A DNA stretch of 64,000 bases from Chloroflexota bacterium (GTDB lineage Bacteria > Chloroflexota > Dehalococcoidia > Lucifugimonadales > JADFKI01): the NCBI GenBank assembly GCA_027623195.1, contig JAQBUT010000001.1, positions 126,752 through 190,751 of the forward strand. The letters are read 5' to 3'. A model generated the notes under the pieces. It did not search any database, was not told the origin of the DNA, and saw only the letters and a list, made by a program, of their open reading frames with translations. Each line of letters opens with the position of its first letter. Position 1 is the first letter of the stretch. Shown piece after piece: positions 57,294 to 63,480 of the stretch. Made by a program: the position numbers and the translations under genes.

Positions 57294-58373
57294 TTACCTG
57301 AAGCGGAAGGTTTTTACGGCCACGATAGCAGTTCCAACAAGCCACCCGGCAAGCACCGAAAGTTGTGCCGGGAAATCAGTTAGAGACTTGGATTCCAGAA
57401 TCACTCCTCGGAAGGTCTCCAGCATGGGTGCCAGAGGCAGAAATTCTACCAAGGTCTGGAGAACCAACGGCAAGTTGTCAGTGGGAAAGAACACCCCGGA
57501 GAAGAACATAAGGGGAAGGACAACTGCATTGCCCAGACCGCTGGCCGCCTGCACCGTTTTGGCGTAGGCCCCGACGATGAAGCCCAGGTTTAAGAAGACG
57601 AGGTTTCCCATCAAAAGGAGCAGTGCTATTACTAGCAGGTTGCCCTCCACCGAAGCGCCGAAGGCCAGCACCCCCACGGACAGGATAATCGTCGCCTGAA
57701 TCAGCGCCAGAACTAGGTATGCAAGGACCTGGGAGGCAAAGAAAATACTAACGCTCAAAGGTGTCGCCAGAATCCTCGTCAGTATCTTCTTTTCTCGATA
57801 GGAAGAAATGGTGGCGGCTAGGCCGATTACCGAGAAGCTCATTACGCCCCAGACGGCCAGCCCCGGCAGCACGAAATCGAGGTAGTCCACCTCACGAATG
57901 GATACGCCTTCTATAGTTAAGGCCAGGCGTATGGGGGCATTGGACATTTCCAGGTTGGCCTGGTCAATAAACCTATCTACCAGACCTACGACGATTTCGC
58001 CGATGGGATTGGTATCATCATAGACGACTGTAACTCGGGCAGGAGGGTCGTTCTGAACGGTGGCCTGCAGACCTTCCGGAATGATCAACAGGTAATTCAG
58101 GTCGCCGTCGTTGAACTCCTTACGGGCGAGTCGCTCGTTCTCCCTCTCCTCCACGTTGAGGTCTTCCAATTCCCTAAGGTTGGATATGAGCTGGCGTGAA
58201 ACGTCGTCCTGAGCGTTATCAATCACAGCTATGGTTGTCGCGGTGTCGCTTTCGCCGAAGAAGGTGCCGAATACGACGACGAATATGAGGGGGAATGCCA
58301 GCGCCCAGAAAAGGGACTGACGATTGCGAGATATCATCTTCAGGTTGGCAATTGTTAAATGGAAGATAAGCAT
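57294..58373 (-). CDS. ABC-2 type transporter permease
   Basis: FWALAFP, YLDFVLPG, REKKIL, FFSGVFFP. Confidence 0.9.
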   Translation of the reverse strand: MLIFHLTIANLKMISRNRQSLFWALAFPLIFVVVFGTFFGESDTATTIAVIDNAQDDVSRQLISNLRELEDLNVEERENERLARKEFNDGDLNYLLIIPEGLQATVQNDPPARVTVVYDDTNPIGEIVVGLVDRFIDQANLEMSNAPIRLALTIEGVSIREVDYLDFVLPGLAVWGVMSFSVIGLAATISSYREKKILTRILATPLSVSIFFASQVLAYLVLALIQATIILSVGVLAFGASVEGNLLVIALLLLMGNLVFLNLGFIVGAYAKTVQAASGLGNAVVLPLMFFSGVFFPTDNLPLVLQTLVEFLPLAPMLETFRGVILESKSLTDFPAQLSVLAGWLVGTAIVAVKTFRFR

Positions 58374-58415
58374 GGGTCTAAAACGCCGCCACACGCCAGC
58401 CGGTATTCAACAAAA

Positions 58416-59354
58416 TCATTCCTGCAATCCGCGGCCCGTAAGTGAAAGAAAAACGTCTTCCAAATTGGACGGAGTGACCTCAAGGTGCTTCACCGGTGCG
58501 CCTGATTGGCCGGACCATGCCATAATCCCGGATACCGTTGCTGCAGCGTCCGAGGAGCGCATACGGACCGTGCCTTCTCCATCATCCACAACGTCCTGCA
58601 CGCCCGTCAGGTTACTCAGCGCGTCCAGATTGTACTCGCTGCCGGTGATTATCTTGACCTCGAAGGGAACAGGAAGGGCCCTGACCAGGTTTTCTGGAGA
58701 ATCCATTGCCACTATCTTACCGTTATCCATTATTGCGATACGATGGCAAAGAAACTCCGCCTCCTCCATGTAATGGGTGGTTAGCACCACAGTCCGCCCA
58801 TCCGCGTTGATGCTTTGAATAAAATCCCACAAACTTCTTCGTGCCTGCGGGTCCAGTCCCGTTGTAGGCTCGTCCAGGATAATGACCTCGGGCTCGTTGA
58901 TTAGCGTGGCGGCTATGGTGAACCGCTGCTGCTGACCGCCGGACAAGGTTTTGACCCTAGACTTAGCCTTGTCTAGCAAGCCAACGCGTTCCAGCAGCTC
59001 GCTTGTGGACGCGCGCCTCTTATAAAAACGAGCGAAAAGATTGAGGATTTCCTCTAAAGTAAGGTAGTCGAAGTATGCGGAAGCTTGAAGCTGAACGCCA
59101 ATGCGCTGCTTGACGTTCTCGGGTTCAATTTGGGTTTCCATCCCCAGCACGAAGGTGCGCCCTGAGGTAGGTTCCGACAGGCCTTCGATGCATTCGAGGG
59201 TGGTGGTCTTTCCGGCTCCATTAGGTCCCAAGATGCCGAATATTTCACCCTTGTGGACTTCAAATGAAACCCCGTCGACAGCATTCAGGTCGCCGAAGCT
59301 TTTCACCAAGTCTTCTACTTTTATTACCACGTCGTCGGATGACGAGGACACCAT
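58416..59354 (-). CDS. ABC transporter ATP-binding protein (DrrA-like exporter)
   Basis: GPNGAGKTT, LSGGQ, LDEPTTGLD, TTHYMEEA. Confidence 0.95.
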   Translation of the reverse strand: MVSSSSDDVVIKVEDLVKSFGDLNAVDGVSFEVHKGEIFGILGPNGAGKTTTLECIEGLSEPTSGRTFVLGMETQIEPENVKQRIGVQLQASAYFDYLTLEEILNLFARFYKRRASTSELLERVGLLDKAKSRVKTLSGGQQQRFTIAATLINEPEVIILDEPTTGLDPQARRSLWDFIQSINADGRTVVLTTHYMEEAEFLCHRIAIMDNGKIVAMDSPENLVRALPVPFEVKIITGSEYNLDALSNLTGVQDVVDDGEGTVRMRSSDAAATVSGIMAWSGQSGAPVKHLEVTPSNLEDVFLSLTGRGLQE

Positions 59355-61776: not shown

Positions 61777-63267
61777 TCAGAGGCCTGCCAGATCCAGCGT
61801 CGTTACCTTGAGACTTACCAGGTCGGCGACCCTTATCGCGTGGTTGTTGGTGTCGGCTATATACATTTTGCCTTGGGCGATGCTAATTCCAGCAGGTTCG
61901 TGGAACTGGACCTCATCTGCACGACCATTTGCCTCACCCGCAACACCCGTTCCTATGAAGCCATAGGCTTCTTTGGTGGCTGGATTAATCTTTTTGATCT
62001 TATTGTTGTATGTGTCGGTCACGTAAAGCATCCCGTCCAGCATTTCGATTCCGATAGGATGCTGGAGACGCACGTCTTCGCCAATGCCGTCCACATCCCC
62101 GAACTCGAACAGATGCAAGCCGACGATGGTCTCCACACGGCCCATGCGACTAAGGTCGGCGGTCCGTATGGCGCTGGTCTCGCTGTCTGTGAAGTAGAGC
62201 TTATCGCCGTCGGTGGCGATCCCGCTGGGTTGGGCCAACTCTGCCTCCGCCAGCGCGCCATCGACAATTCGTTCGCGGCCGTTGCCCGCGTAGGGCCTCG
62301 CCTCTTTCGTCGATAGCTCCAGGCTCCAAAGCTGATGGAAGCCTGCCATAGCGATGTACAGGACGCCTTCATTCAAGACCAGGTCCCAAGGGGAGTTGAG
62401 CTGTATAAGGTCAGCATTGCCGCCCCCGTGGCCCCCTCGCGCCTGCTGGCCGGTACCTGCAATGGTCTTAACCTCTCCACTGATCAGGTCGACCTCACGA
62501 ATGGCATGGTTCTTCGTGTCGGCCACATACAGCGTATCCCCATCAAGTGCCATTCCCTGGGGGTCGAAGAACTGCGCTTCATCCTTGGAGCCATCCCTGA
62601 GGCCTTCCTCCCCTGAGCCAATTACCTGCTGCACCTGGCCTTCCAAGGAGGCAACAAGAATACGATTGTGATTGGAGTCTGCGATGAACAGCCGATCAGA
62701 TGCGGCATCAGCCAAGACCTTGCCGGGGAACGACAACGGACGTTCCCACTCTTTTTCCTTCTCCAGGTGGAAAGTCAGAAGGCCTTTTTTCAACAAATTC
62801 TGGTCTTCGTATTTAGCGACCATGTCGCCCAGTAGCTTGTCGAAATCCGCTAGGTCGATCTCGCCCTCATGCTTACCGATGATCTTCCCCTGTGGGTCCA
62901 CGAACATGAGCGTTGGCCACGCACGCACGCCGTACTGCTGCCATATCTCAAAATCGCAATCGTTGACGACTGGGTGCTCCACCTCGTAGCGCAGGATGGC
63001 CTTGCGCACATTCGCCGAGTCCTGCTCCGCCGTGAACTTGGCGGAGTGGACGCCTATCACGGTCATCTCGTCCCGGTACTTCTCTTCCAATTTCCGCAAC
63101 TGCGGGAATACGTGCATGCAGTTAATTCAACAGTACGTCCAGAAATCCAATAGGACGATTCTGCCGCGTAGGTCTTGCATGGTCAGCGACTTGTCCGTGT
63201 TCAGCCAGTCCAAGTGCGTAGGAAAGTCGGGGGCGTCGTTCTTGCCTTGATACATTCTCGGGCTCAT
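61777..63267 (-). CDS. Thioredoxin-like + NHL-repeat selenoprotein (NHLRC2/SOQ1-like), 496 aa, Sec47 (UGA at 63127-63129)
   Basis: ATG 63267 after GGAGG reads [41 protein letters not shown], in frame with the listed 446-aa ORF; GVHSAKF, AWPT and NHL repeats. Confidence 0.9.
63090..63109 (-). promoter_or_regulatory. Candidate bacterial SECIS element
   Basis: AUUC-CCGC-AGUU-GCGG-AAAU hairpin whose loop starts 26 nt after the UGA. Confidence 0.65.
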
Positions 63268-63480
63268 GCGCGGCCCTCCATCTACAGGTGTTTGCGGATT
63301 CGATGCGAAGCGTATGCCGGCGGGTTTTGCTGCCGGGTGGAATCTAATGTACAGGTTTGGTAGGGAATTTAAAAGTTTGGCATGCTAAGAGGGAAACAAA
63401 GAGAGACGCAGCAATAAGAGGCTAGGCTAGCCTTGAATGCGAGGTTTTTTTGCCCAACATACAAGAATCACACCAGAAAG

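Follow-up and report, generated by a model that had tools for sequence, protein, structure and literature searches.

A TGA-encoded selenocysteine predicted in the redox motif of a Chloroflexota protein of the NHLRC2/SOQ1 family

A Chloroflexota gene located in a 64,000-nt stretch of genomic DNA (the window, to whose positions all coordinates refer) very probably encodes a selenoprotein of the NHLRC2/SOQ1 family, in which selenocysteine (Sec) would carry the redox chemistry at residue 47. The minus-strand frame from 63267 to 61777 translates into 496 aa with a single internal stop, a TGA at codon 47 (63129-63127) in the context ...DFWTYC(TGA)INCMH...; reading this TGA as Sec gives a C-U-I-N-C motif, and we predict with near certainty that the codon is recoded in this way. 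The Sec variant of this known family is real and widespread, and its chemistry is not of a new kind; UxxC thioredoxin-fold selenoproteins are the commonest selenoprotein class.

Gene and reading frame

An earlier, sequence-only reading of this DNA had proposed that the frame opens at an ATG preceded by a ribosome-binding site, that the 446-aa ORF called at the locus starts inside a domain, and that standard annotation shortens the gene. All three proposals held: a GGAGG (63279-63275) stands 7 nt ahead of ATG 63267, the 446-aa ORF begins at ATG 63117 just past the redox motif, and public gene calls begin after the motif in 101 of the best 120 protein matches, the remaining 19 having Cys; the database proteins are shortened because the TGA is treated as a stop. 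No sigma-70 promoter match was found, and terminator matches are at chance level. The features of the locus are collected in Table 1.

Table 1. Features of the Sec gene, in positions of the window.
Feature	Position	Strand	Evidence
Full CDS, 496 aa with TGA read as Sec	61777..63267	-	translation; sole genomic match
Terminating second TGA of the 496-aa CDS	61779-61777	-	
Shine-Dalgarno-like GGAGG, 7 nt 5' of ATG 63267	63275..63279	-	sequence
Gene-caller 446-aa ORF, beginning 3' of the redox motif	61777..63117	-	artefact of TGA-as-stop
Predicted Sec codon U47, equivalent to SOQ1 C431	63127..63129	-	conservation, alignment
C50, putative resolving Cys, equivalent to SOQ1 C434	63118..63120	-	alignment
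SECIS-like hairpin, +19..+36 after UGA	63091..63108	-	conservation, folding
4-bp core stem, +22..+25 / +30..+33	63105-63094	-	folding
AGUU loop, +26..+29	63101-63098	-	folding
TlpA/DipZ-like thioredoxin domain, ~aa 10-156	62800..63240	-	Pfam PF13905, PF00578, PF08534 over cut-off; alignment to 6GC1
Six-bladed NHL beta-propeller, ~aa 176-491	61795..62742	-	Pfam, model, alignment

A two-domain protein of the NHLRC2/SOQ1 family

The protein has the features of the family, a thioredoxin-like domain with an NHL propeller of six blades after it and a CC(I/V)NC motif in which Sec takes the place of the second Cys. Among solved structures it comes closest to SOQ1 (E 6e-136), followed by NHLRC2 (E 3.5e-111 over aa 11-491), and the AlphaFold model (pLDDT 82.9, low at residues 79-102) superposes on 7DJK with a TM score of 0.87 and on 6GC1 with 0.84. 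The lumenal region of Arabidopsis SOQ1 (7DJJ/7DJK) is 45% identical over aa 7-496, with SOQ1 Y429, C430, C431, C434, R478 and E859 corresponding to Y45, C46, U47, C50, R93 and E457; the earlier proposal that Sec occupies the attacking position of the CxxC is thereby borne out, as U47 aligns to C431. Unlike SOQ1, the protein has Sec for C431 and lacks the HAD domain, the membrane helix and the C-terminal domain with C1006 and C1012, which in the available text on SOQ1 is the electron acceptor and has reported Msr activity. Human NHLRC2 (6GC1) shares the CCINC motif and, as read off the alignment, its FINCA residue D148 aligns to D103, whereas Sec replaces its C90 and its C-terminal beta-stranded domain is missing here; the alignment also corrects the human motif, given in the sequence-only reading as WTYCCINC, to FTYCCINC.

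Bacterial Cys-type NHLRC2 homologs, some of them without a C-terminal domain, have the same layout of thioredoxin-like domain and propeller, two-domain forms included, and no Sec form is mentioned in the available text (PMC6107167). They are 53-63% identical to our protein in the thioredoxin domain; unlike it, they have TGC or TGT in 80/80 loci listed and no hairpin core, in a control set of at least 80 loci that was found by a Cys pattern and is thus a Cys-biased control rather than a census.

We assembled 102 full-length Sec forms, leaving out L142, which is cut by a contig end; L170 and L171, in which the motif was unmatched, were also left out. C50 is Cys in 102/102 of these, and the Cys before Sec (position 46) is replaced by Gly or Ala in 19/102. 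R93, D103, P118 and E457 are conserved cleft residues, among which P118 is a cis-Pro candidate and D103 the equivalent of NHLRC2 D148 (alignment; invariant columns). The protein is probably cytoplasmic, since no hydrophobic N-terminal stretch was seen.

No C-terminal beta-sandwich with a Cys pair follows the propeller, and a profile of this domain finds none in the genome, though at 87% completeness the assembly may have missed a separate copy. The same profile, which also detects the SOQ1 domain (E 1e-20), finds it in 1/102 Sec forms versus 67/89 complete Cys forms, having been built from 66 of the Cys tails later counted. Several Cys forms of the same class are also without the domain, whose absence may thus be a matter of lineage and not of Sec. 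The single Sec form with the Cys-pair domain, L210, has the three-domain layout closest to that of NHLRC2.

Proposed mechanism

From the anatomy and conservation of the locus, SelB would recognize the in-frame hairpin 22-33 nt past the UGA and insert Sec at residue 47. The U47 selenolate would then attack an oxidized substrate, most likely a protein disulfide or another oxidized sulfur center, C50 would resolve the mixed bond to give a U47-C50 selenenylsulfide, and a cellular reductant would reset the pair; these steps are modeled on thioredoxin-fold chemistry and on the data for SOQ1 C431 and C434. Substrate choice would lie with the propeller and the conserved interdomain cleft, and this would account for the failure of family members in the insulin assay, NHLRC2 and SOQ1 having no insulin-reductase activity according to the available text of bioRxiv 2024.11.01.621559. 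With the C-terminal acceptor domain lacking in the protein and no copy detected in the rest of the genome, the two-domain Sec module would have to act on a separate partner or substrate.

The sequence-only reading had called the redox activity of the family poorly established, which overstated the case. In SOQ1, either C431S or C434S abolishes function in vivo (bioRxiv 2021.03.16.435614, available text), and the thioredoxin domain (-274 mV) reduces the protein's own C-terminal domain in vitro, a domain that itself carries Msr activity (bioRxiv 2024.11.01.621559, preprint, available text). A Sec predicted at the C431 position corroborates this already reported redox activity.

We are confident that U47 would serve as the redox nucleophile, and we lean toward an enzyme that reduces a specific protein substrate in trans. 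The main alternative accepts Sec insertion and takes the enzyme for a peroxide or sulfoxide reductase working on small oxidants, as peroxiredoxins or Msr enzymes do. Sec in general favors peroxide chemistry, and the PF00578 and PF08534 matches, the Msr activity of whole SOQ1 and the missing acceptor domain also speak for this alternative; we nevertheless think it unlikely, given that the Msr cysteines of SOQ1 sit in the very domain that is absent here (bioRxiv 2024.11.01.621559, available text), that T-Y-C-U-I-N-C is a UxxC and not the PxxxTxxU of Sec-peroxiredoxins, and that the large conserved cleft suggests a macromolecular ligand (PMC6107167, available text).

Conservation of the TGA codon

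If the codon specifies Sec, relatives should carry TGA at the same column, and they do. Across 41 genomes (this one and 40 relatives), matches were found in 29 genomes at 30 loci, with TGA at codon 47 in 30/30. A sample of 301 genomes of the class gave 77 matches, 42 with one TGA and 35 with none; the TGA fell at the motif codon in 30/30 checked, out of the 41 TGA loci besides this genome. At the level of the phylum, the TGA pattern was matched in 47/301 genomes, and 29 pattern loci examined from its other classes comprised 20 full-length thioredoxin-NHL Sec forms and 9 stand-alone redoxins. Where the locus has no TGA, the column reads TGC or TGT in 97/97. In the phylum of G608, an Acidobacteria record, the pattern occurred in 1/121 genomes, as a stand-alone redoxin (L326), and the pattern matched no full Sec form there.

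A SECIS-like hairpin downstream of the TGA

The hairpin with an AGUU loop that had been noticed after the UGA is supported by conservation: its 11-nt core (+22..+32) is identical in 60/60 TGA loci and present in 0/97 Cys loci, and in the wider set it occurs in 94/102 full-length Sec loci. With the bases closest to the UGA excluded from the fold, the core stem forms with pair probabilities of 0.86-1.0. Bacterial SECIS elements have a loop of 3-9 nt, a stem of 4-16 bp, a G in the first two loop positions and a distance of 16-37 nt from the UGA (PMC13188914), a geometry into which this hairpin fits with a 4-nt loop AGUU with G second, a 4-bp stem and 25 nt from the UGA.

The core spans codons for PQLR, and 93/94 of the Sec genes that encode these residues share the one set of four codons that forms it, including a Leu codon of 10% usage elsewhere; the share expected from each gene's own codon usage is 0.012, though kin are not independent. 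Across 17 distinct sequences, the outer stem pairs are T-A in some and C-G in others, whereas the four core pairs scarcely vary and give little evidence of covariation. Against shuffles, the hairpin region alone has no excess stability (z = -0.35 to +1.1), and what makes it significant is its conservation, not its stability. A genome-wide scan for TGA followed by an AGUU hairpin returned 115 matches in 85,276 TGAs, mostly chance, and is useless as a filter.

Mean fold energy is -11.0 kcal/mol at Sec loci versus -5.5 kcal/mol at Cys loci. Over the span +13..+45, the energy is -7.5 kcal/mol or lower, the value used as a criterion for bacterial SECIS elements, in 101/102 Sec-form loci; the hairpin of this genome is the weakest of the 102, reaching only -6.5 kcal/mol because of a C.A mismatch at +21/+34 that is found in this genome alone, and Sec insertion may be less efficient here. 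Some minimum-energy folds contain a competing stem that pairs +5..+12 with +24..+30, which we set aside since its 5' arm should sit within the ribosome during UGA decoding. Six Sec forms (L221, L232, L201, L177, L296 and L297) have other hairpin sequences at the same distance, which suggests SECIS turnover or independent gains.

Decoding of the TGA

The genome holds the Sec machinery that the proposal presupposes: selA (554 bits), selB (311 bits) and selD (385 bits) were all matched over the profile cut-offs, and a tRNA-Sec is present. The selD gene (G000:C46:6726-7649, L011) has an in-frame TGA of its own and is a predicted selenoprotein gene; its downstream hairpin is stable (-17 kcal/mol) and has a loop unlike that of the NHL-type Sec gene. 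Among 80 genomes tested, selA was found in 75, comprising 45/45 TGA carriers and 30/35 non-TGA genomes, and the 5 without it all carry the non-TGA form; the correlation is consistent yet a weak test, as 30/35 of the non-TGA class genomes also have selA. One genome without selA, G147, has the Cys form and belongs to the same order.

It is highly improbable that the TGA is a true stop, leaving either a pseudogene or two separate products of 46 and 446 aa, even though gene callers report a stop in those 101 matches and the hairpin of this genome is weak. In many families and classes the stop falls at the same catalytic codon, accompanied by a single conserved hairpin; the 40 codons 5' of the TGA are under purifying selection like those 3' of it (pN 0.10-0.25, pS 0.41-0.80 in 7 comparisons); and the 63267-61777 gene is the sole match to the 496-aa protein in the genome. 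Nor is there a GGAGG-like motif ahead of ATG 63117 to start the second product, and a split would cut the fold within the active-site helix. Still less credible is a reading of the TGA as Trp, Gly or Cys by an altered code or leaky read-through, for the gene itself terminates at TGA, the tRNA-Trp anticodon is CCA, the sole tRNA with a TCA anticodon is the tRNA-Sec, and non-TGA homologs have Cys alone at position 47. Sequencing or assembly error, conceivable in an incomplete assembly (87%), is the least probable reading and is refuted by the same TGA at 59 other genome loci and by agreement between contigs from 2 studies, codon 47 being an unchanged TGA in the assembled contigs (as distinct from raw reads) of 4 runs, one of them possibly the genome's source.

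Evolution of the Sec and Cys forms

The trees, which are unrooted, were computed from 56 and 49 rows chosen by hand, after masking of the Sec site and of the residues that the SECIS constrains. They reject the Sec forms as one clade (p-AU 0.0014), and the 49-row tree requires at least 11 Sec/Cys changes. Inside a group of 8 (support 99/96), in which the remaining 6 are Sec forms, lie two Cys proteins, P0008 and P0089. Past the motif they retain PQL, in contrast to the PDL of most Cys forms; known from protein sequences alone, they look like Sec-to-Cys reversions. SOQ1 is placed among Cys forms from outside Chloroflexota (92/98), nested in a branch (97/98) rich in Sec forms; in an unrooted tree, this placement would fit a single gain of Sec in Chloroflexota as well as a Sec ancestor of greater age. 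Dehalococcoidia records cluster with loci from the class of this genome, which, together with a 70%-identical protein assigned to a Chloroflexota bacterium, makes Dehalococcoidia the probable class of the host.

Stand-alone DipZ-like redoxins with a G-U-I-N-C motif, ending ~109 aa past Sec, were also seen (L176, L179, L180, L184, L185 and others; L315-L323; L326), and many of them share the hairpin core. The motif is absent among the deep-Sep representative sequences, and these redoxins may be a further unlisted subfamily or may stand under a generic entry. The same core occurs in 26/42 short stand-alone Sec redoxins from metagenomes, and could reflect common ancestry with the NHL forms, cassette exchange or convergence; a thioredoxin-only tree that takes in the stand-alone redoxins is weak, with an outgroup sampled for Sec forms only and 69 short or duplicate rows dropped. 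In L191 and L288, NHL-type Sec thioredoxin domains stop 101 aa past Sec and are possibly split from the propeller.

Gene neighborhood

Downstream by 70 nt on the same strand lies a DUF255/thioredoxin-domain gene (PF03190; 59628-61706, minus strand) with a CHWC motif, which we take to be YyaL/SPATA20-like. A DUF255 homolog stands beside the Sec gene in 18/30 close-relative loci, 3/30 class-level Sec loci (with short flanks) and 1/23 metagenome loci, and is adjacent in 0/97 Cys loci and 0/29 other-class loci. By synteny, the DUF255 protein is a possible candidate partner. Upstream is a TenA/THI-4 family gene (PF03070; 63481-63969, minus strand), adjacent in 25/30 close-relative loci and not in more distant ones; further downstream, an ATPase and a permease (57294-59354, minus strand) resemble an ABC-2 type transporter pair, with matches below the family cut-offs.

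Relation to catalogued selenoproteins

The catalogued UxxC selenoproteins resemble our protein in having an in-frame SECIS and in placing Sec where the attacking Cys of a TlpA-like CxxC would be; they are entered as Prx-like thiol:disulfide oxidoreductase (PF00578), redoxin family protein (PF08534) and thiol-disulfide isomerase-like (cd02966), and unlike our protein, none of their entries has an NHL propeller (PMC13188914, Table 1). This 2026 table of 119 families contains no NHL entry, and the NHL-type Sec form adds a subfamily missing from it. The representative sequences in the deep-Sep supplement hold no UINC/UVNC or FWTY/FWTF motif, the word 'NHL' is likewise absent from the supplements, and no NCBIfam 20.0 model scores over its cut-off for the protein. 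A word search found no 'NHL' in the available main texts of PMC9312934, PMC2398784, PMC13326102, PMC12013277, PMC7539508 and PMC13745706, and a literature search combining NHLRC2 or NHL repeat with selenoprotein or selenocysteine, whose scope took in few subscription papers, returned nothing relevant. BSepDB takes in any Sec/TGA tblastn pair at E 0.01, and NHL Sec genes may therefore sit there under a generic name.

Significance

NHLRC2, an essential protein in mice that is mutated in FINCA disease, has to our knowledge no known substrate. That Sec has naturally been substituted for the second Cys of CCINC, the first being Gly or Ala in some of the Sec forms, is an independent, evolutionary line of evidence for the second as the reactive residue, in agreement with the SOQ1 mutants. 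The Sec forms also represent the family in a minimal version of two domains, and as the acceptor domain is missing from them they would lend themselves to clean trapping of substrates. The truncation of those 101 matches amounts to large-scale mis-annotation, and the apparent Sec-to-Cys reversions are of interest because such reversions have been called rare in bacteria (2026 review with the 119-family table).

More speculatively, and we hold this to be a doubtful extension, the thioredoxin-propeller module of NHLRC2/SOQ1 might work throughout Chloroflexota as a substrate-specific selenoenzyme in its own right. Its Sec/SECIS signal, whose hairpin core the stand-alone redoxins share, would then be ancient and would have given way to Cys on several occasions, perhaps also on the SOQ1 branch. 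If that were true, identifying its substrate, with the DUF255 neighbor as a candidate, would show what human NHLRC2 does at its core independently of the C-terminal domain.
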